NCBI GenBank assembly: GCA_016180525.1
Contig: JACPBB010000001.1
Span: forward strand, 75,320-139,319
Origin: Parcubacteria group bacterium
GTDB taxonomy: Bacteria > Patescibacteriota > Minisyncoccia > Phycocordibacterales > UBA2135
DNA: 64,000 nucleotides
Reading direction: 5' to 3'
Positions 41,648 to 51,039 of the stretch are shown in pieces. Position numbers and translations under genes: made by a program. Under the pieces are notes generated by a model. It had not been told where the DNA came from and searched no databases. It was given only the letters and a program-made list of their open reading frames with translations. Each line of letters opens with the position of its first letter. Within the stretch, counting starts at the first letter, position 1.

Positions 41648-41705
41648 GTCCCATACTAAGCTTTGCTCTAGTATCGGAGTCAGCGGCCACGCACCAAATT
41701 TTCCC

Positions 41706-41777
41706 TCCGCGGTAGCTCAGCGGTAGAGCGGCTCCCTGTTAAGGAGATGGTCGCAGGTTCGATCCCTGCCCGCGGAG
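41706..41777 (+). tRNA. tRNA-Asn (anticodon GTT)
   Basis: Cloverleaf read manually: acceptor TCCGCGG/CCGCGGA, D-arm GCTC-AGCGGTA-GAGC, anticodon loop CTGTTAA, T-arm GCAGG-TTCGATC-CCTGC, discriminator G; CCA not encoded. Confidence 0.8.
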
Positions 41778-41835
41778 GAAAGATCTGGTGTGGAGTGTAA
41801 AGAACGTCGTGGCTCCCCGCCTAGAAAGTTTGAAA

Positions 41836-41855
41836 AAATCACACCACAAATTTTA
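41836..41855. repeat. Left copy of perfect 20-bp direct repeat AAATCACACCACAAATTTTA (right copy at 48946-48965)
   Basis: seen directly; flanks a ~7.1 kb accessory block next to tRNA-Asn. Confidence 0.7.
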
Positions 41856-41863
41856 GCGCGTAA

Positions 41864-44638
41864 TTGTACCTGTCCCCATTTTTAAATTTGGCAGAGAAAT
41901 TCGTAAAAATATCATTAAAGGTACAATTAGAGACAAGAGGCAAAATTAGAACCAAAAAATATTGCATGATTTATTGCAACATAGAAGATCTAAGAAACGA
42001 AAGCGACGTAGAGCAAAAGCTCTGCGTTCCTCTTATTACGACTTCTTCAGAAAAAGGTTTAGGCTACTCAAAAAGTGATTATAGTTCAAAAAAGACTCTT
42101 AAAAAAATGGTCATTGGCAAAAGCGGGGACAAAAAATCTTATCGCCCAGATTTCATTACATTTATTCAAGGAACGCCAGTATTGGTAATTGAAGCAAAAA
42201 GCCCAGAGGAAGACCTGACAGAGGGATATAGAGAAGCGAGATTGTATGCGAACGAGTTAAATGCCATATACCCCTCCGGAATAAATCCATGTACGAAGGT
42301 TCTGGTGACAAATGGTAAAGAAATTTGGTACGGCAAAAATGATGAAAGAGAAGTCTTCGGTAAATTAACTTTTAAAGATATCAACATTTCCAACAAGAAA
42401 TTTACTGATCTGTTAGATTTTTGCAGCAAAAGTAAGATTAATAATGAATTAGAGACTGTTATAAAAAAAACGCGCAGTAAAAAAAATTTTAGTAAACCAA
42501 CTGCAATACTTGGAGGAAAAGCGAGTAGGGAGGAGGAACTTGGAAGCAATACTTTTGGTTCTGCTTTAATGTATGAATATCAGAGAATATTCAACCCTGA
42601 AACAAGAGAAGACAGGGTAGAAATTGTCAGAAATGCTTATATACCTTCTACGGGAATTGAAAAACACAAGAGCCCAATTCGAAAGCTAATTCTCGCTACG
42701 CTGCCACCCAGCTTAAAAAACACAACGAAAATCGAAAATACATCAAAACCACGAGAACTTTTGAGCAAGCTCCTGTCCCCCCAAAGGCTATCCAATCAGC
42801 TAATTTTATTAATTGGTAATGTTGGATCAGGAAAAACTACCTTTATTGATTATTTGAGAGAAATCGTATTGCCCACAGAGATAAAAAATAAGACAACGTG
42901 GGTATATATTGATTTAAACTTCGCACCCAACACGAAAGATGAAATTTATCCCTGGGTCCAAGAAAAAATAGTTGCTCAATTGAAAGATACACACCAAGAA
43001 CTTAACCTCGATCACATTGATGAATTGAAAAAGCTATATGCTGGTGATATAGAAGCATTTGAAATTGGTGAAGGAAGTTTACTAAGAGATGACCCAAAAG
43101 AATATAATAAATTGCTTGCCAAACTGATCCAAGAAGCAAAGGCAGACAAAAATAAAACCGCTAAAGCATACACAAGATATTTATGCGGCGATAGAGGAAA
43201 AACATTTATACTCATACTTGATAATGGAGATAAGAGAAACAAAGAAGATCAACTGCTGATGTTCGAAGTGGCCAGATGGGCAAAAGAAGAGTTTCGAGCT
43301 TTAATATTTTTGTCACTACGAGATGTCACATACGATTTACACAAAACGGAGCCTCCTCTTGATACTGTTATCAAGGATATGGCCTTTAGAATTGATCCAC
43401 CAGAATTAAGCCAAGTACTTTACAGAAGAGTCGCATACGCAATTCAGAACTCACCGTCAAGGGGAATCAAAATGACCTTAAATAATATGGTTGTGAATAT
43501 CTCAAAAAAAGAACAAGACATGTATTTAAAATGTATTCTAGAATCGCTTTATAATTCAAGTCCGTTCTCAAGAAAATTGATAAATGGGCTGGCTGGAAGG
43601 GATCTGCGAAGAGGGATAGAGATATTTATAACGTTTTGTAGAAGTGGACATATTTCTAATAAAGAAATATTGAAAATGCGTGTCTCAAATGGTTCCCACC
43701 CCCTTGAAGAACACATCGTCTTGAGGGCTTTGTTAAGGGGTAGTAAGCGATTTTATTCAGGGAGAGACTCTTATATTAAAAACTTATTTGAAAGCTACCC
43801 GGACGAAGAAGTAATCCCCGATCCATTTGTGAGGATGTCAATATTGAAATGGTTTCAAGAAAAAAAAGCGATCCGAGGTCCTAGTGATGCTAAGGGCTTC
43901 CATCCTATCGCTGATCTAGAAACAGATCTCCAATTGATTGGACATAATGAGAAAAGAGTACGAAGTGAAGTAGTAAACTTGCTAAGAGAGCGCTGCCTCA
44001 TAAGTGAAGCGCAAACAGAAGAAATTCTTGCGGAGACAGATCCAAAAGAAATAGAAAAAGGAATTGAGGATAATGATCTGATAAAAATAGCGCCCGCTGG
44101 CACAATTCACTTAGACCTGCTTCTGAATATTGTTTATTTGTCTGCCTGTGCCGAGGATATTTGGTATTGGAGCCATCAGACGGCAACAACTATAAAGGAA
44201 CGACTAACAAGAGAACAGGGGGTTGGACATTATTCGTTATCGACCAACTTAAAAAATTCATCGGACCTAATTGATTATTTAATTGATTATCAAAAAAAAT
44301 ACTACCCCAACAATGAGACTATCATTGACAAAGACATTCCACGCATAGACCTACAAACAATTAAAAAATTTGTCTCTGAGAGAGAACTAAAGGTACAAAA
44401 CAAGAACTCTGACTTGAAGAGGCGTTACCCTTTTAATAAAGAGCTTGTATGTTCTATTGAGAGGATTATCCTCAGGGCTGGAATCAGAGTACTCGTAGAG
44501 CCGGGCGTCTACGGCTTCATCATGAAAAGAGACATAAGGCAAGCAGAAAGTTTCCAGCAAGGTAAAAAAGTCAAAGTGCGAGTCAATGGTCTAGATGAAG
44601 ATCGTAGTACGCTTATTTTAAGTCTAATAGAAAAATGA
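41864..44638 (+). CDS. Large hypothetical protein: N-terminal PD-(D/E)xK nuclease (HsdR-N/Mrr-like) motif fused to a P-loop NTPase
   Basis: YRPDFITFIQGTPVLVIEAK (PD...ExK); LLIGNVGSGKTTFIDYL Walker A; FILILDNGD Walker B; ~500 aa further of unknown function. Confidence 0.6.
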   Translation: MYLSPFLNLAEKFVKISLKVQLETRGKIRTKKYCMIYCNIEDLRNESDVEQKLCVPLITTSSEKGLGYSKSDYSSKKTLKKMVIGKSGDKKSYRPDFITFIQGTPVLVIEAKSPEEDLTEGYREARLYANELNAIYPSGINPCTKVLVTNGKEIWYGKNDEREVFGKLTFKDINISNKKFTDLLDFCSKSKINNELETVIKKTRSKKNFSKPTAILGGKASREEELGSNTFGSALMYEYQRIFNPETREDRVEIVRNAYIPSTGIEKHKSPIRKLILATLPPSLKNTTKIENTSKPRELLSKLLSPQRLSNQLILLIGNVGSGKTTFIDYLREIVLPTEIKNKTTWVYIDLNFAPNTKDEIYPWVQEKIVAQLKDTHQELNLDHIDELKKLYAGDIEAFEIGEGSLLRDDPKEYNKLLAKLIQEAKADKNKTAKAYTRYLCGDRGKTFILILDNGDKRNKEDQLLMFEVARWAKEEFRALIFLSLRDVTYDLHKTEPPLDTVIKDMAFRIDPPELSQVLYRRVAYAIQNSPSRGIKMTLNNMVVNISKKEQDMYLKCILESLYNSSPFSRKLINGLAGRDLRRGIEIFITFCRSGHISNKEILKMRVSNGSHPLEEHIVLRALLRGSKRFYSGRDSYIKNLFESYPDEEVIPDPFVRMSILKWFQEKKAIRGPSDAKGFHPIADLETDLQLIGHNEKRVRSEVVNLLRERCLISEAQTEEILAETDPKEIEKGIEDNDLIKIAPAGTIHLDLLLNIVYLSACAEDIWYWSHQTATTIKERLTREQGVGHYSLSTNLKNSSDLIDYLIDYQKKYYPNNETIIDKDIPRIDLQTIKKFVSERELKVQNKNSDLKRRYPFNKELVCSIERIILRAGIRVLVEPGVYGFIMKRDIRQAESFQQGKKVKVRVNGLDEDRSTLILSLIEK

Positions 44639-44889
44639 GGGGTTTAGAAAGGTTTCATAGGTGACTCCGAATGAACTAAGATTATTAATTGTCTAACTTG
44701 CTCCAGCGACACGCTCGGATAAGAAAACACCCCCTCCCACCTTGTCGTCCGTAGCGTGTCCAGCCACGCGAGTACTTTTTTGAGCCTTGATTTTCAATGC
44801 TCTTTTTTGATACTCCAAGTTGGACATCAGAACTTTTCTTGGTTATATTTCCCATAGAAAGATTTTATTACAAAAAAGGGGTGGTATCA

Positions 44890-45512
44890 TGAACAACCTG
44901 CGACTACAAGGAAAGATTGTCGTTGTCGCTTACTCTGGAGGGCCTGATGCAACAGCACTTACACATCGCTTGAAAATGTCTGGGGCGGTGGTTCATCCGT
45001 TCTACATTAATTACCGCAAACAACACAATCACCCTAAGACTCTTAACGACTTAAGGGCGGCAAATGCATCTGCAGAAATCCTCGGTATCCAGAAAGTCGA
45101 AACAGTTCGAGCCCCACTTGGAGAACGAAGCAAGGGTGAGCGTAATGGGTTCTTCGTTGAAGTTCTCTCACCCATTGCGAGAGAACTTGGAAGTTCCCAC
45201 ATTGGACTTGGCACCATATGGGATGGAACAGACGATGATTTGAGTGTTGAATCCTTGTCTCTTCGTGGCTGTGAGCACAACTGTGAAGTAGTCACGTGGG
45301 ATAGTTTCGGTATACACGAAAAGGCAGATCAGTTTCTGGGGGTAGACACTAAGACGCGCGAAGCGCTGTTTCAGACCACATCATGCCAACGGTGGTGGAT
45401 ATGGAAAACCGAGTGTGGTGGATGCTACAGCTGCAAGGCACGTCACGGAGCTTTTCTCAAGGCCTTTGGGTACGACCCCACGGTTTATTACAAAGCTGTA
45501 TCCTCACTATAA
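44890..45512 (+). CDS. QueC-like PP-loop ATP pyrophosphatase (7-cyano-7-deazaguanine synthase family) paralogue
   Basis: VVVAYSGGPDAT PP-loop (SGGxD), C-terminal CGGCYSCKAR zinc motif as in QueC; AAGGGGTGG RBS before ATG 44890. Confidence 0.55.
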
Positions 45513-45601
45513 TTCTTTTCTCAAAAGTCGCTTCATTATTGAGTGACTTTTTTGTTACGTAAATCCAAGTAATTGTAAATCCCGTTCAACATTTACCCAA
45601 T

Positions 45602-45661
45602 CAAAAGTTCTCCGCCTCGCTCTTACTCGTCGAGACGGGTGAACTCGTCCACAATGGGGAG
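45602..45661. repeat. Copy 1 of ~60-bp direct repeat CAAAAGTTCTCCGCCTCGCTCTTACTCGTC(G/A)AGACGG...CTCGTCCACAATG(G/T)GGAG (copy 2 at 46089-46148)
   Basis: seen directly, ~90% identical. Confidence 0.65.
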
Positions 45662-45733
45662 TAACATTGACAAAGTAATAGTATTGTGCTATTTTTTGTA
45701 CAGTTTTCAAAATAATTAGAGAGGAAAAAATTA

Positions 45734-45937
45734 ATGCACACGCGTGATACATCGAGATTCACGTTCCATTTTAATTCAGATTTCAGTGGCAATATCGTCT
45801 GCATCAATAAGGAAACAGGAGCAGAGATGCAAATTCCCGCAGAGGAAATCTTGCAACTGGTAGCCTACCATTATCTAGCTGCAAAAAAAATTGAAAAACT
45901 CGAACAAGCAAGTATTGAAGAACTTCTACTAGCATGA
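45734..45937 (+). CDS. Small hypothetical protein (67 aa)
   Basis: promoter-like TTGACA and AGAGAGG RBS upstream, two terminator hairpins downstream. Confidence 0.4.
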   Translation: MHTRDTSRFTFHFNSDFSGNIVCINKETGAEMQIPAEEILQLVAYHYLAAKKIEKLEQASIEELLLA

Positions 45938-46088
45938 GTTTGTAATATTTTTATAACCAACCGCCCAAGGAAAACCGTCCTTGCGGCGGTTTTTTACATA
46001 AACCCTGCCTGCCAGTAGGCAGGCAGCCCCCCTATTTCAATTTTAATTTGTTTCCACCCCGCCTTGCCTGATGCAAGTCGAGGCAGGT

Positions 46089-46148
46089 CAAAAGTTCTCC
46101 GCCTCGCTCTTACTCGTCAAGACGGATAAACTCGTCCACAATGTGGAG
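46089..46148. repeat. Copy 2 of the ~60-bp direct repeat, upstream of TspO gene
   Basis: seen directly. Confidence 0.65.
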
Positions 46149-46244
46149 CAAGCAATTTTTCAATTGTGTTTGCAGTAGAGCGCATTTCACATCTGATACA
46201 CTTTTGTTATGTATCTGAAGCGTGCTTTTTGGTAAAATTGGGTT

Positions 46245-46751
46245 ATGAGACTTCCTCCTTCGTTAAAACTTCGGCGGACAAGCAATAATTTTTTCAGATT
46301 GGTTATTGCGATTGCGGTGTCAGAAGCGGCCGGAATTATCGGGTCAGTTTTCACCGTCTCGGCCATTCCGACTTGGTATGCCGGACTTGTGAAGCCGGCG
46401 CTCAATCCTCCGAGCTGGGTTTTCGGGCCTGTTTGGACGATACTCTATGCGCTGATGGGCATTGCGGCGTTTTGGGTGTGGCGTATGGGTTGGGAACGGA
46501 AAGAGATAAAAATGGCGCTTGGAGTGTTTGGCATCCAGCTTTTCTTAAATGCCATCTGGTCAATCATTTTCTTTGGTCTGCATAGCTCCACCTGGGCCCT
46601 CGTGGATATCATTCTGCTGTGGTTTGCAATCGTTTGGACAATGGTTGTTTTCTATAAAATTTCAAAGCCGGCAGCATATTTACTTATTCCATATCTTCTC
46701 TGGGTTAGTTTTGCTTCGTATCTTAATTATTCTATTTGGTTATTAAACTAA
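46245..46751 (+). CDS. tspO: TspO/MBR family tryptophan-rich sensory protein
   Basis: five TM helices, W/Y-rich conserved pattern (PSWVFGPVWTILYALMG...). Confidence 0.8.
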   Translation: MRLPPSLKLRRTSNNFFRLVIAIAVSEAAGIIGSVFTVSAIPTWYAGLVKPALNPPSWVFGPVWTILYALMGIAAFWVWRMGWERKEIKMALGVFGIQLFLNAIWSIIFFGLHSSTWALVDIILLWFAIVWTMVVFYKISKPAAYLLIPYLLWVSFASYLNYSIWLLN

Positions 46752-46755
46752 CTAC

Positions 46756-47268
46756 ATGAGAAAAAAGACAGTAAAAGTAAGTGACAAGATCCAGAAAAAC
46801 TATCAATATGAGCTTACCGAACCGGCTGGCAGGAATTTTCATGCTAGTTTTAAGCCCGAGCTCACTCCCAAACAAATGCTTACCTTGGGCGTTTTCGGCG
46901 GCAAGTACATGACCGACTGCAAAAAAGAATTTCCCAAGGGCTGGTTTACGCGCGCCAAACTTTCGCCCGAGCATCACGACGATACGCTGAATTATTTTCA
47001 TAAACACGCGAGCCAACCGCTTAAGGTGTGGGTTAAAAAGGGATGGATCAATAAAAAGCATGATCCAAGAGGATGGTTTCAGTGGTATTGCCGTTACTAC
47101 ATGGGCCGGCGACTTCCCGGCGAAGACGAACGGCAGATCAAACGCTGGAAAGCCATTCGGCGGCACATTGCGCAGGTCAAAAAGAATTGCAGAAAGAGAG
47201 ATTTAACCTGCCGTCCGACGCAAAGACAGGCGGTACTTCACTGGGCCTACGACAGCCGGAAAATATAA
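46756..47268 (+). CDS. Hypothetical protein (170 aa), basic, W-rich
   Basis: ORF 4 bp after tspO stop; no assignable motif. Confidence 0.5.
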   Translation: MRKKTVKVSDKIQKNYQYELTEPAGRNFHASFKPELTPKQMLTLGVFGGKYMTDCKKEFPKGWFTRAKLSPEHHDDTLNYFHKHASQPLKVWVKKGWINKKHDPRGWFQWYCRYYMGRRLPGEDERQIKRWKAIRRHIAQVKKNCRKRDLTCRPTQRQAVLHWAYDSRKI

Positions 47269-47506: not shown

Positions 47507-48049
47507 ATGCGTAAGGGCAGAGGGCTCGTAGATGTTGATATTTATAATGAATTATTGAAAGTTCCCGGAGCGCGCAAATTGTTACTTGATAACACAACAA
47601 ACCACAGAACAAATCCGAAGACGAATAAGGTGTGCGCTGAAATTCATGAGGACGCTTGGCCAGAAGTGAAAGAAATGGTCGCCAATTGGAAACGCTTCAA
47701 GAAAGGACAGCCGCAGCAAACGCATACAAAAATAGCGCCAAAGAAAGGGACTGCTGTTAAAAAAGAATCGGCTATTGACCCGAAACAGCAAGAGTGTATT
47801 CGGAGACTAAGAAAGCTGAAGCCAGGAGATAAGTTTGCATACAAAAATGTTGGCTATGGCCTCACGAGCTACGAAGATGGCAGTGACGCCATTGAAATCA
47901 AAAAAGGGAAACTATTCACCGAGACCTTCGATAGCATGGGCATGGAATGGACGGGAGCCACTTGGAAGTTTGACGGCGGACTTGGCTTAGTAACCTATAT
48001 CGTTCTTATGGAAGATGTGCCCGAGGGGCAACTCGCGGATCAAGGTTAA
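47507..48049 (+). CDS. Hypothetical protein (180 aa)
   Basis: AAGGAGGG RBS, terminator at 48060-48084. Confidence 0.5.
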   Translation: MRKGRGLVDVDIYNELLKVPGARKLLLDNTTNHRTNPKTNKVCAEIHEDAWPEVKEMVANWKRFKKGQPQQTHTKIAPKKGTAVKKESAIDPKQQECIRRLRKLKPGDKFAYKNVGYGLTSYEDGSDAIEIKKGKLFTETFDSMGMEWTGATWKFDGGLGLVTYIVLMEDVPEGQLADQG

Positions 48050-48385: not shown

Positions 48386-48805
48386 TTGGGGTGGGATATG
48401 AGAGTTGGCCTGATTGCTTGTTCAAAAACCAAACGAGTTGGCAGGTATAAGGCGAGAGAATTGTATTGTTCTCCTTTATTTCGTTTTGCGTGGCAATACA
48501 CAAGTCAGCATTTTGATAGGGTGTTTATCCTTTCTGCTAAATATGGTCTACTTGACCCAGAAAGACGCGTCTGCGACTACGACACTACGTTGAATACTAT
48601 GACAATTGATGCGCGGAAACGATGGTCTGTACAAGTAGCGAAACAAATTCTGCAAAAAACAAACACAAGTGACGAGCTTCACCTCTTTTGCGGTAAAAAA
48701 TATAGAGAATTTGTTGTGGCATTGCTACGAGGGCAAAAATGTTTTTATCCTCTCCACGGTTTAGGTATCGGGCAGCAGCTGCAATGGTATAAAGAGAGAT
48801 TATAG
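48386..48805 (+). CDS. Hypothetical protein (139 aa; conserved-looking IACSKTK...ILSAKYGLL pattern)
   Basis: ORF only. Confidence 0.45.
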   Translation: MGWDMRVGLIACSKTKRVGRYKARELYCSPLFRFAWQYTSQHFDRVFILSAKYGLLDPERRVCDYDTTLNTMTIDARKRWSVQVAKQILQKTNTSDELHLFCGKKYREFVVALLRGQKCFYPLHGLGIGQQLQWYKERL

Positions 48806-48945: not shown

Positions 48946-48965
48946 AAATCACACCACAAATTTTA
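48946..48965. repeat. Right copy of the 20-bp direct repeat AAATCACACCACAAATTTTA
   Basis: seen directly. Confidence 0.7.
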
Positions 48966-49047: not shown

Positions 49048-50583
49048 TTATTGTAATTTATCCAGGCTAAGCAGCATATTCCACGTTTTTCCCTTGTCGC
49101 TTGATTTCCAGATGCGCGCTAGATCTGAATTTATGTAGATGACATTCGGATCAATCGGGTCAAAGACGATGTTTGCAACACGATGGTCATTGGTAATACC
49201 GTTCGGAAGTTTTCCTACGGCATTCCACGTTCTACCGCCGTTGGTACTCTCAAAAATGTCATTTGGCTGGGCATATAGATTGACTCCGATCAGTTTCGTG
49301 CCGGTTTCATCATGCGGATTGTAACGCGCGAAGTTGACCATCATATTATCCGGTTCAAGGAGACTGCCATCGATTGAGTAATAAATTTTATCCATATTAT
49401 CCTTGCTGGCCATAATATAAAAACGGTTTAAATCCACCGCTGAGACATCAAGATGCCTTATGCCAAGGTCAAGCGTAGCACCAAGTTTCGTCCAGCTCTC
49501 TCCGGCATCATTAGTTTCCAAAAACCCCCATTGTTCGTCTGTAGATTTTTTGTCGACATTGGTGCCGCTTGGCAACCCAAACGTGGCCAACCTCAACCTC
49601 TTCGGATCCCGGACATCAATGAAAATTCCAGGCACTCTTAAATCTGGAAACAGTCCGGTCGAAAGCTCTTTCCATGTTTTGCCATTATCCACCGTTTTGT
49701 AGACAATACCTTTCGTTACAAAAGTCTTGCCCTTATCGGGGCCATCCATGCCTTGAGGCAAAGCCGATGTCGTGACATACACTATGTTCGTATCCGTTGG
49801 ATTCATGACCGCACTTTCCGTATAGGCACTCATCTCGCTCGTGAAAAGTTGGTGCCAGGTGGCACCGCCGTCCAAACTTTCAGAAAGCCCCCCAAGTCCT
49901 TCTCCCACTTTTCCTGGAGCACTGCCGCCCGGAGCCAACAGGCGCTGTGGATTTGAAGGATCTATATACAGGTGGAAACGAAGTTCATAACAAGGCTTTG
50001 ATGGATCATCGTTTCGAGGCAAGCCCTTAAGTCCCTTCCCCGAAAAACTCCACGTATTGCCGCCGTCAACACTTTTATATAGACCCTTATACTCTACATT
50101 GATATACATTTCCTTGTTGTTTTTTGGATTAACCACAAACGCCTGTTCAGTTCTGTAGTTATCAAAACCCAACCTTGGATAGCAGTTCACCGGATGTCCT
50201 TGGACAACATCGCTCTCAGCCACTGTTCTTGGTTTACTAGGAAAAGATATTTTCTGAAGCGTTGTTGCCGGCTTAGATTTTCCGAGATCTGTCTCGGATA
50301 CATTTTCTTGGCCGGATTTTGGCATGTCTGCGCGTGGTATTGCCTCTTCAATATTTTGCATACTACGAGCGGAGCTCTGCGGCTCATTTATGATTTCTTC
50401 CGGCCCTTCTCGTTCTGATTGTGTTGAAAAATAAAAATGACTGCCCAGTCCGGCTGCCACGATGACAGCTACAATTCCAATAATGAAAATATGAGTGAAT
50501 CCCCTTTCGGTTTTCATGTTTTTTATTGTATCAAAACTTTTATGACACTCAAAAACTAGGAGAATTCGGAGAGAGTGCTGCAA
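49048..50583 (-). CDS. Exported BNR/Asp-box repeat protein (sialidase/Sortilin-like beta-propeller)
   Basis: N-terminal TM/signal; at least six SxDxGxTW repeats (SVDGGNTW, SLDGGATW, TVDNGKTW, TNDAGESW, STNGGRTW, SSDKGKTW). Confidence 0.7.
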   Translation of the reverse strand: MQHSLRILLVFECHKSFDTIKNMKTERGFTHIFIIGIVAVIVAAGLGSHFYFSTQSEREGPEEIINEPQSSARSMQNIEEAIPRADMPKSGQENVSETDLGKSKPATTLQKISFPSKPRTVAESDVVQGHPVNCYPRLGFDNYRTEQAFVVNPKNNKEMYINVEYKGLYKSVDGGNTWSFSGKGLKGLPRNDDPSKPCYELRFHLYIDPSNPQRLLAPGGSAPGKVGEGLGGLSESLDGGATWHQLFTSEMSAYTESAVMNPTDTNIVYVTTSALPQGMDGPDKGKTFVTKGIVYKTVDNGKTWKELSTGLFPDLRVPGIFIDVRDPKRLRLATFGLPSGTNVDKKSTDEQWGFLETNDAGESWTKLGATLDLGIRHLDVSAVDLNRFYIMASKDNMDKIYYSIDGSLLEPDNMMVNFARYNPHDETGTKLIGVNLYAQPNDIFESTNGGRTWNAVGKLPNGITNDHRVANIVFDPIDPNVIYINSDLARIWKSSDKGKTWNMLLSLDKLQ

Positions 50584-50784: not shown

Positions 50785-51039
50785 ATGTTTTATGTGTATA
50801 TTTTAAAAAGCAAACAGGATCATAGGTTATATGTGGGTTCAACCAATAATTTAAAGCGTAGATTTGCTGAGCATAACAAAAATCTGGTATACTCAACAAA
50901 ATCCCGCGCTCCATTTGAGTTGCGTTATTATGAAGCATATCACTCTGAAAAAGATGCTAGATATCGTGAACGCTCATTAAAGAAAGGCGGCAATGCGCTT
51001 GCGCAACTCAAACGAAGAATTGTAAAAAGTATATTCTAA
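50785..51039 (+). CDS. GIY-YIG nuclease superfamily protein (stand-alone)
   Basis: FYVYILKS...RLYVGST.NL..R..EHN motif, 84 aa. Confidence 0.8.
   Translation: MFYVYILKSKQDHRLYVGSTNNLKRRFAEHNKNLVYSTKSRAPFELRYYEAYHSEKDARYRERSLKKGGNALAQLKRRIVKSIF

Follow-up and report, generated by a model that had tools for sequence, protein, structure and literature searches.

QueC, the 7-cyano-7-deazaguanine (preQ0) synthase of the tRNA queuosine (Q) pathway, is recognised by the catalytic signature YxQxHxxE, VPxRN, YPDC and Y189, in which Y35, R99, Y131 and Y189 are essential in E. coli, alanine mutants of Y131 or Y189 abolishing Q formation (PMC13329287). In both QueC and Cap9 the tyrosine of the Y-x-D motif stacks on the 7-deazaguanine and the aspartate reads N1/N2 of the base, and the PP-loop binds the pyrophosphate of ATP (PMC13279940). 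The QueC scaffold has been repurposed several times, for protein deazaguanylation in Cap9 and QatC and for other chemistry in LarE and the GMP synthase-like branches; in the published survey of the family (PF06508) only the ten largest sequence clusters were analysed in detail. A 64,000-nt stretch of the genome of a Parcubacteria group bacterium (contig JACPBB010000001.1, positions 75,320 to 139,319; hereafter the window) was found to carry, on a 7.1-kb island, a gene for another protein of this superfamily, here called the QueC-like protein. Its open reading frame (ORF) encodes a genuine, full-length, highly diverged QueC homologue with a remodelled active site, which is tentatively predicted to amidate a 7-deazaguanine carboxylate.

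Sequence and structure of the QueC-like protein

The features of the gene and of its product are listed below. The last four entries are consensus matches only, and promoter-like and terminator-like sites in the spacer are no more frequent than in shuffled sequence.

44889..45512, plus strand: QueC-like ORF starting with the ATG at 44889-44891, 207 aa and a stop codon, from a divergent clade within the PF06508 superfamily
44934..44951, plus strand: PP-loop SGGPDA, residues 16-21, the ATP pyrophosphate-binding loop
45006..45050, plus strand: residues 40-54, INYRKQHNHPKTLND, taking the place of canonical YxQxHxxE
45141..45146, plus strand: R85-N86, equivalent to R99-N100 of the VPxRN motif, kept
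45237..45239, plus strand: D117, equivalent to E. coli D133 (YPDC) and to Cap9 D117, kept
45384..45443, plus strand: zinc-ribbon segment C166-x9-C176-xx-C179-xx-C182-xx-R185, all four zinc cysteines kept
44876-44884, plus strand: Shine-Dalgarno-like AAGGGGTGG, 4 nt ahead of the QueC-like ATG
44821-44849, plus strand: sigma-70-like promoter match TGGACA-17-TATATT, candidate own signal of the QueC-like gene
44821..44884, plus strand: candidate expression signals of the QueC-like gene taken together (promoter-like and Shine-Dalgarno-like)
44754..44782, plus strand: terminator-like hairpin plus T-run, 3' of the 890-aa gene that precedes the QueC-like gene

The protein is identical in sequence to an existing record, HYT93_00640, annotated as a hypothetical protein of a Parcubacteria-group metagenome-assembled genome (MAG). 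A preliminary description of this DNA had placed the ORF at 44890-45512, which is correct at the end and one base late at the start, and had named the PP-loop SGGPDA and a C-terminal zinc motif, both of which are present (residues 16-21 and C166-R185).

The Pfam QueC model (PF06508) matched the ORF with 31.9 bits (gathering threshold 22). Alignment with hhalign of the family profile of the ORF against a profile of 20 canonical QueCs gave a probability of 99.9% and E 8e-34 over residues 9-204, the identity of the protein to the QueC profile being 19%. The AlphaFold2 (AF2) model (predicted local distance difference test, pLDDT, 84.5; predicted template modelling score, pTM, 0.84) was compared with solved structures by Foldseek, and the best were B. 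subtilis QueC (3BL5) and Cap9 (9NTO), with E 3e-6 and template modelling (TM) scores of 0.58-0.70. In a PDB sequence search with the family profile the best matches were Cap9, with E 6e-4, and the C-terminal part of QatC, with E 5e-3. Because of the Pfam score, the profile-profile alignment and the structure matches of the AF2 model, the QueC-like motifs are not a chance match: the ORF has a significant model match, a QueC-type fold and a PP-loop, and is a full-length member of the PF06508 superfamily. The divergence that the preliminary description assigned to the N-terminus is real, but is spread along the whole protein.

The distance from canonical QueC is large. The TIGR00364 equivalog model gave 19.4 bits against a cut-off of 150.3, and on a hidden Markov model (HMM) of canonical QueC built here true QueCs reached 215-330 bits, Cap9 105 and the QueC-like protein 59.8. 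In reverse scoring, the QueCs of E. coli and B. subtilis obtained 11-23 bits on the family profiles of the QueC-like protein, and E. coli QueC reached the ORF by tblastn only at E = 5.

Active site residues

Residues were mapped by alignment and hhalign and read against the E. coli mutagenesis (PMC13329287) and the Cap9/QueC substrate contacts (PMC13279940). The SGGxDS loop and the C(x)8CxxCxxC motif of canonical QueC are both recognisable, the former as SGGPDA and the latter with x9 between the first pair of cysteines. The last serine of SGGxDS has become alanine, a change invariant in the eight aligned core members. The zinc motif, C166-x9-C176-GG-C179-YS-C182-KA-R185 in full, is invariant or nearly so in the homologues.

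The catalytic signature proper is not that of canonical QueC. Y35 of E. coli QueC corresponds to Y42 and is kept, and E42 corresponds to D54, so that its acidic character is kept. Q37 and H39 have no counterpart; their place is taken by a 5-residue insert ending in the conserved K50 (YR-x-GGK; GGK in the homologues). K165 is kept as K145. D117, the equivalent of the base-reading aspartate, shows no variation within the core family and a conservation of at least 90% across the wider alignment, whereas the stacking tyrosine two residues upstream (the essential Y131 of E. coli) is deleted. The essential Y189 is replaced by an invariant glutamine, Q167. Altogether, of the four residues that E. coli QueC cannot do without, the equivalents of Y35 and R99 are kept, while Tyr131 is deleted and Tyr189 is replaced by Gln. 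The same altered signature is conserved in homologues from Obscuribacterales.

Canonical QueC identity was rejected on the TIGR00364 cut-off and on the loss of essential residues, and the genomic context agrees. No match to E. coli QueA, Tgt, QueD, QueE or QueF was obtained by tblastn in the 64-kb window (best E 0.019, a "QueD" match at the left window edge that proved to be a release-factor fragment), as the preliminary description had claimed for the surroundings of the gene. No que or tgt gene, and no queD/queE linkage, was found in the window or in any of the nine neighbourhoods of homologues considered below. The view that this is not the canonical preQ0 synthase thus holds on score, on residues and on neighbours.

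Clade and distant relatives

A word-indexed search retrieved only 8 relatives, with 40-54% identity. An exhaustive HMM search of 1.84 billion representatives gave 579 matches at E <= 1e-3, only 8 of them below 1e-30, and a search with a 17-sequence profile returned 24 proteins at 212 bits or more, followed by a gap down to 78 bits, where ordinary QueCs begin. The members come mostly from Obscuribacterales-type metagenome contigs, and the two matches in GTDB genomes are both Obscuribacterales MAGs. By these scores the QueC-like protein belongs to a small, discrete, undescribed clade of about 24 protein clusters. The clade is as far from canonical QueC as QatC is.

A sister subgroup (P0169, P0028, P0167; about 28% identity) is encoded on phage-like contigs among tightly packed co-directional genes. 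One of its contigs has a ParB-like gene three genes upstream (PHROG E 3e-15; Pfam ParB_N 16 bits, below cut-off), and a DNA methyltransferase is encoded on another contig related to this subgroup. Slightly more distant relatives, P0019 and P0021, are fusions with DUF5591, which forms the core domain of ArcS, the archaeosine synthase, an enzyme that acts on preQ0 (PMC10516641). No match to the QueC-like protein was obtained by tblastn against 50,697 phage records, and no relatives were found in the plasmid collection (tblastn) or in a scan of IMG/VR.

Three phage-like contigs carry the sister subclade at L026 1236-4063, L028 2372-4150 and L029 129-2034. On L026 and L028 the sister gene is preceded by a conserved pair of genes of 262/265 aa and 112/117 aa, whose products have no Pfam, PHROG or PDB match; L026 has, in addition, a ParB-like gene upstream. 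This arrangement on the three contigs may be a novel phage DNA-modification cassette.

Orthology with Cap9 and QatC was also considered. The PADLOC models for Cap9 ("QueC") and QatC gave no convincing score for any of these relatives; the QueC-like protein itself obtained 27.7 bits from the CBASS (cyclic oligonucleotide-based anti-phage signalling system) "QueC" model, over residues 10-108 only, and no match from the QatC model. The active-site signature of Cap9 (Y/FxQ..E, YxDC, RN) is reduced to the Y, the RN and the D. With 207 aa the protein corresponds to the QueC core only, in contrast to the about 400-465 aa of QatC with its essential extensions. Pfam and PADLOC scans of the island ORFs revealed no CD-NTase, Cap10, QatA, QatB or QatD, so that neither the QatC operon (QatA KAP NTPase, QatB with an MGTS N-terminus, QatD TatD) nor the Cap9 partners (CD-NTase and the TGT-like Cap10) are present, and CD-NTase and Cap10 domains were not found near the clade homologues either. 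A similarity in the C-terminal part that had seemed specific to QatC (AF..A..DPT.Y) belongs to the canonical QueC consensus as well. A QatC or Cap9 orthologue was rejected on the size of the protein, its partner genes and its HMM scores.

Genomic island and gene neighbourhoods

The elements that define the island, and two of its genes, are the following.

41705..41778, plus strand: tRNA-Asn(GTT), with the left repeat 58 nt downstream; it probably marks where the island was inserted
41836..41855, plus strand: 20-nt exact direct repeat AAATCACACCACAAATTTTA, left copy, 52 nt at 77% identity when extended
48946..48965, plus strand: 20-nt direct repeat, right copy, 7110 nt downstream of the left copy
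41966..44638, plus strand: nuclease-ATPase, 890 aa from ATG, with an HSDR_N (PD-(D/E)xK) nuclease, a P-loop NTPase and a C-terminal S1 domain
48398..48805, plus strand: DUF6884 (DpdC-domain, YaaA-like) protein, 135 aa from ATG, 142.9 bits, with CxxxK and LSAxxG motifs

The 20-nt repeat occurs in exactly two copies in the window (0.02 expected by chance). It brackets 7.1 kb containing the genes for the nuclease-ATPase, the QueC-like protein, a 67-aa ORF, TspO, a 170-aa ORF, a 180-aa ORF and the DUF6884 protein, and supports the earlier placement of the QueC-like gene inside an island. The island ORFs that were scanned contained no integrase domain, and an Rfam scan of the whole window returned only the tRNA.

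Nine independent neighbourhoods of QueC-like homologues, the window included, were compared. The genes found are a BT1 transporter; an RNA ligase, a cytidylyltransferase and a cupin; PrsW, HSP20, LeuRS and TsaD; a TPP-enzyme, an FMN reductase and PNPOx; a patatin and the COX operon; DivIC; a methyltransferase; DUF5715, DUF6884 and a 2H-phosphoesterase; and those of the window itself. No partner gene is conserved across the nine. A small divergent 98-aa upstream gene, considered as a conserved neighbour, was rejected, the L008 and L016 copies not being homologous.

The only recurring neighbour is DUF6884, which lies within 3 kb of the QueC-like gene in two of the nine contexts. In the second of these, the L008/L021 lineage, the DUF6884 gene is 1.3 kb away; identity to the proteins of the window is 49% for the QueC-like and 47% for the DUF6884 proteins, and gene order, orientation and GC content differ. 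DUF6884 is the Pfam domain carried by DpdC (PMC11888242), which converts preQ0-DNA to 7-amido-7-deazaguanine (ADG)-DNA (PMC10164549). A DpdC-type protein is accordingly present on the island, its match to the PADLOC DpdC models being weak (E 3e-5). Small relatives of this protein (window 48398-48805, plus strand) are encoded at L030 5995-6429, L040 1335-1766 and L039 7001-8051. In Fusobacterium phage phiFN37 a homologue (39%) has on one side a gene annotated by PHROG as queuine tRNA-ribosyltransferase and on the other the gene of a preQ0 transporter, YhhQ/Vut_1 (161 bits); ParB-like genes are near by. On L040 a homologue (49%) is part of an overlapping QueT / 219-aa / DUF6884 / DNA-methyltransferase-like cluster, QueT being a preQ0 transporter too. 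Both contexts are added links with the salvage of 7-deazaguanine. Other DUF6884 proteins adjoin, or are fused with, GIY-YIG_3 nucleases. The family of small DUF6884 proteins may serve to recognise, or to process, modified DNA bases such as 7-deazaguanine.

The gene adjoining the QueC-like gene does encode a nuclease-ATPase, as described earlier, with all of the domains listed above and a match to phrog_14719 over almost its whole length (E 4e-117); a weak match to PADLOC mad2 was also recorded. The spacer of 250 nt between the two genes holds the terminator-like hairpin and the promoter-like site, which suggests, on consensus only, separate transcription units, and the QueC-like gene is probably transcribed on its own, apart from the 890-aa gene. 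The nuclease-ATPase is absent from the other eight neighbourhoods, and no QueC-like gene occurs within 7 kb of three full-length homologues of it on plasmids of Desulfocapsa (40% identity), Paraburkholderia and Phaeobacter. On the Desulfocapsa and Phaeobacter plasmids it is a single gene among replication, partition and toxin-antitoxin genes, the Paraburkholderia record being unannotated. Since the spacer motifs, the other neighbourhoods and the plasmid homologues speak against a functional link, an operon or module of the two genes was rejected, and their adjacency looks like co-residence in the island, the nuclease-ATPase itself looking like an uncharacterised one-gene restriction or defence-type element. 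The preliminary description had argued from this adjacency to a module role; none of the eight other neighbourhoods and none of the three plasmid homologues shows the pairing, and adjacency inside the island was here no evidence of a shared module.

In some Obscuribacterales contigs (L005 7097-10645, and L010) the QueC-like gene appears last in a co-directional run of RNA ligase, cytidylyltransferase-like and cupin genes; the RNA ligase consists of PF09414 plus the PHA02142 OB-fold, and the cupin is a "lyxose isomerase" on an ORF of ambiguous strand. In the L008 lineage the 2H phosphoesterase adjoins the QueC-like gene. These neighbours hint at a connection with RNA repair.

Predicted function

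As the base-reading aspartate and the zinc ribbon are kept, relatives are fused to the ArcS domain, the sister clade is borne by phages and a DpdC-domain neighbour recurs, the QueC-like protein may be a stand-alone ATP-dependent amidating enzyme of the QueC superfamily that acts on a 7-deazaguanine carboxylate, with no part played by the nuclease-ATPase. This is the reading tentatively preferred here, at somewhat short of an even chance. Its substrate would be a guanine-like base, most likely 7-carboxy-7-deazaguanine (CDG), whose carboxylate it would adenylate and transfer to an amine. Because the pocket is remodelled, the product or the acceptor would differ from those of the canonical two-step route from CDG through ADG to preQ0; the reaction might stop at the amide or take another amine. 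The gene would have come together with the DUF6884 gene on the 7.1-kb mosaic island beside tRNA-Asn, and, should the two proteins act together, they would produce or alter a 7-deazaguanine derivative that is to enter nucleic acid, base exchange needing a transglycosylase encoded elsewhere. The 890-aa nuclease-ATPase would be an autonomous single-gene element outside this mechanism. A bolder proposal, which must be regarded as doubtful, is that the QueC-like protein and the DUF6884 protein, a mini-DpdC, together make up a 7-deazaguanine module of only two genes that is horizontally mobile, the QueC-like protein making a non-canonical 7-deazaguanine amide or nitrile from salvaged CDG and the mini-DpdC acting on the base after its placement in DNA or RNA by a host or phage transglycosylase. 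Such a module would mean a previously unrecognised nucleic-acid modification in a reduced bacterium of the candidate phyla radiation (CPR) and in Obscuribacterales-type bacteria.

Several observations weigh against a 7-deazaguanine substrate. Seven of the nine neighbourhoods consist of ordinary housekeeping or metabolic genes (LeuRS/TsaD, the COX operon, FMN reductase, DivIC) with no 7-deazaguanine gene, and the island is a mosaic (the unit of TspO and the 170-aa ORF, the stand-alone nuclease-ATPase), so that co-residence alone means little. The association with DUF6884 is real but facultative, resting on two lineages, and DUF6884 itself has contexts with no link to 7-deazaguanine, namely the GIY-YIG neighbour, DUF5667 and three phages with unannotated neighbourhoods; in DUF6884-bearing phage regions neither Tgt nor a DpdA of the phiFN37 type came up by tblastn. 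The window and the contigs of the homologues, searched by tblastn with proteins of E. coli and phiFN37, gave no homologue of Tgt, of the single putative phage DpdA tested (the phiFN37 type), of ParB or of YhhQ, other DpdA families not having been searched. The DpdA transglycosylase and the DpdB ParB-like ATPase of a Dpd module were likewise not found by tblastn in the window, where remote DpdA families could be missed. Finally, the loss of the stacking tyrosine could equally mean a wholly different substrate, as has been argued for QatC.

In an alternative reading the ORF encodes a PP-loop amidoligase of housekeeping or metabolism whose carboxylate substrate has nothing to do with 7-deazaguanine. 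The QueC scaffold would have been repurposed as in LarE, the WbpG-type amidotransferases or family cluster 4, and the proximity of DUF6884 would be a fortuitous result of sharing an island. This reading would account for the mosaic island and for the ordinary chromosomal genes, with no conserved partner, that make up most neighbourhoods, as well as for the loss of the stacking tyrosine and of the Gln and His of the substrate-side motifs, and the survey of PF06508 shows that the scaffold has been put to new uses repeatedly. Yet the aspartate that reads the Watson-Crick edge of guanine-type bases is retained to the extent given above, the zinc ribbon, lost in LarE and GMP synthase, is kept, close relatives are fused to the ArcS core domain, and the pair of QueC-like and DUF6884 genes recurs at about 48% identity in a lineage with another gene order and GC content. 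An unrelated substrate appears unlikely, though far from negligible. The accessory role proposed in the preliminary description is plausible in so far as it concerns 7-deazaguanine, with DUF6884 on the island and the pair recurring in an unrelated lineage; its argument from the nuclease-ATPase next door is not supported, and the protein is no QatC or Cap9 orthologue either.

The ORF could also be a fast-evolving QueC orthologue, a working preQ0 synthase converting salvaged CDG to preQ0 for tRNA queuosine, the other steps being encoded elsewhere in the genome. Homology to QueC does extend over the full length, with the PP-loop, R85/N86, K145, D117, Y42 and the zinc site all kept, and the homologue on L001 lies 60 nt downstream of a co-directional BT1 folate/biopterin-type transporter, which could fit base salvage. 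The TIGR00364 score is nevertheless far below the cut-off, and Y131 and Y189, whose alanine mutants abolish Q formation in E. coli, are deleted and replaced by Gln. Because the altered signature is conserved in the Obscuribacterales homologues, it is not the accelerated drift of a CPR lineage; no que or tgt gene lies within 64 kb or beside any homologue. A preQ0 synthase is thus improbable. Least probable of all, to the point that little weight is given to it, is a protein-deazaguanylating ligase like Cap9 or QatC, which would modify the N-terminus of a partner immune protein, the neighbouring nuclease-ATPase, in an anti-phage module. The best PDB matches of the family profile (Cap9 and the QatC C-terminus), the PADLOC CBASS "QueC" match and the location of the gene on an island next to a nuclease-ATPase that matches phrog_14719 are in keeping with such a role, but the PDB and PADLOC matches are weak, and the C-terminal AF..A..DPT.Y is shared with the canonical QueC consensus. 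CD-NTase, Cap10, QatA, QatB and QatD were not found near by, the protein has 207 aa without the QatC extensions, and no island protein begins with a glycine motif of the MG[GT]S type. The nuclease-ATPase is missing from all other clade neighbourhoods, its three opened plasmid homologues have no QueC-like gene within 7 kb, and the two genes look like separate transcription units on consensus motifs only.

The ORF marks a further discrete QueC branch, characterised by a YR-GGK loop, a base-reading aspartate without the stacking tyrosine, and SGGPDA for SGGxDS. This branch is an undescribed part of a family under active study and not a new principle. If the clade acts on 7-deazaguanines, it would enlarge the 7-deazaguanine repertoire of DNA and RNA by one more enzyme and perhaps also by a base derivative not known before, and would tie the widespread, uncharacterised small DUF6884 proteins to that chemistry.

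Other features of the island

The remaining features within the island, and two just outside it, are as follows.

46245..47268, plus strand: TspO and the 170-aa ORF, an independent two-gene cargo unit with a 4-nt gap
47507-48049, plus strand: 180-aa ORF, no match in Pfam, PADLOC, NCBIfam, PHROGs or PDB sequences
45601-45664 and 46088-46151: 64-nt direct repeat, 92% identical, flanking the 67-aa ORF (45734-45937) between the QueC-like gene and TspO
50785-51039, plus strand: 84-aa ORF just outside the island, GIY-YIG nuclease-like by its N-terminal motif
49048-50583, minus strand: predicted secreted protein of 511 aa with D-G-G-x-T-W (BNR/sialidase-like) repeats, abutting the right island repeat

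The 170-aa protein has no Pfam, PHROG or PDB match and its single-sequence AF2 model reached a pLDDT of 36.7, too low for use. Rhizobial plasmids encode homologues of it with 62-65% identity, and in three of the ten records listed a TspO/MBR gene is given next to the homologue. This identity is strikingly high for a Parcubacteria genome and suggests recent horizontal transfer. The island cargo is a mosaic of unrelated units. Homologues of the 170-aa protein are also found in jumbo phages of Vibrio, Yersinia and Flavobacterium; no que gene is annotated within 9 kb of the homologue in Flavobacterium phage immuto_2-6A. PDB sequence searches with the 170-aa and 180-aa island proteins, the 262-aa protein of L026, the 219-aa protein of L040 and the phiFN37 "DpdA" gave no informative match.

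The first copy of the 64-nt repeat lies just upstream of a promoter-like site, TTGACA-17-TATTTT. The repeat had no Rfam match and its folding z-scores were weak (-1 to -2.6), with no convincing structure. A copy of the 84-aa ORF with 41% identity occurs about 5 kb from the QueC-like gene on L011, probably by coincidence.

Comparison with known systems

The QueC-like protein resembles canonical QueC (TIGR00364, EC 6.3.4.20; 3BL5, 2PG3) in its fold, which agrees from end to end (hhalign 99.9%; Foldseek E 3e-6), in its size (207 aa, about 220 aa in QueC), and in the PP-loop, the RN pair, the conserved lysine, the aspartate of YPDC and the C-terminal four-cysteine zinc ribbon. It differs in its 19% profile identity, in the replacement of YxQxHxxE by Y-R-x(5)-GGK-xx-x-D, of SGGxDS by SGGPDA and of Tyr189 by Gln, in the deletion of Tyr131, and in the absence of queD/queE linkage. 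Like Cap9 of type IV CBASS (9NTO), it is a small single-domain protein encoded outside a queuosine operon, and Cap9 gives the best TM-score of the AF2 model among solved structures (0.62 / 0.70). Cap9, however, retains the canonical YxQ...E and YxDC and reaches 105 bits on the canonical profile, against 60 here, and the QueC-like gene has no CD-NTase, no Cap10 and no partner with an N-terminal glycine motif.

With QatC of QatABCD the protein shares a comparable remodelling of the active site, including the loss of the stacking tyrosine, the retention of the zinc ribbon and a location in accessory DNA. QatC is longer, at about 400-465 aa, since it has essential extensions at both termini as well as a loop that binds QatB, and it has threonine in place of both the tyrosine and the aspartate, the latter being retained in the QueC-like protein; moreover, no QatA, QatB or QatD gene lies beside the QueC-like gene. 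As for the Dpd DNA-modification system, the window neighbour carries the DUF6884 domain with its CxxxK and LSAxxG motifs as DpdC does, but is a single domain of 135 aa, compared with about 310 aa for DpdC, on an island with no DpdA or DpdB.

The phage QueC variants (QueC*, a proposed ADG synthase, and Gat-QueC) and the QueC-ArcS-type fusions form the last group. The contigs of the sister clade differ from these systems in that no FolE, QueD, QueE or phiFN37-type DpdA homologue was detected in them. The likeness is that these variants too are QueC homologues, whose product is thought to be other than preQ0 and which belong to DNA 7-deazaguanine modification, and that the sister subclade of the QueC-like protein is itself borne by phages, with a ParB-like gene and a DNA methyltransferase on separate contigs.

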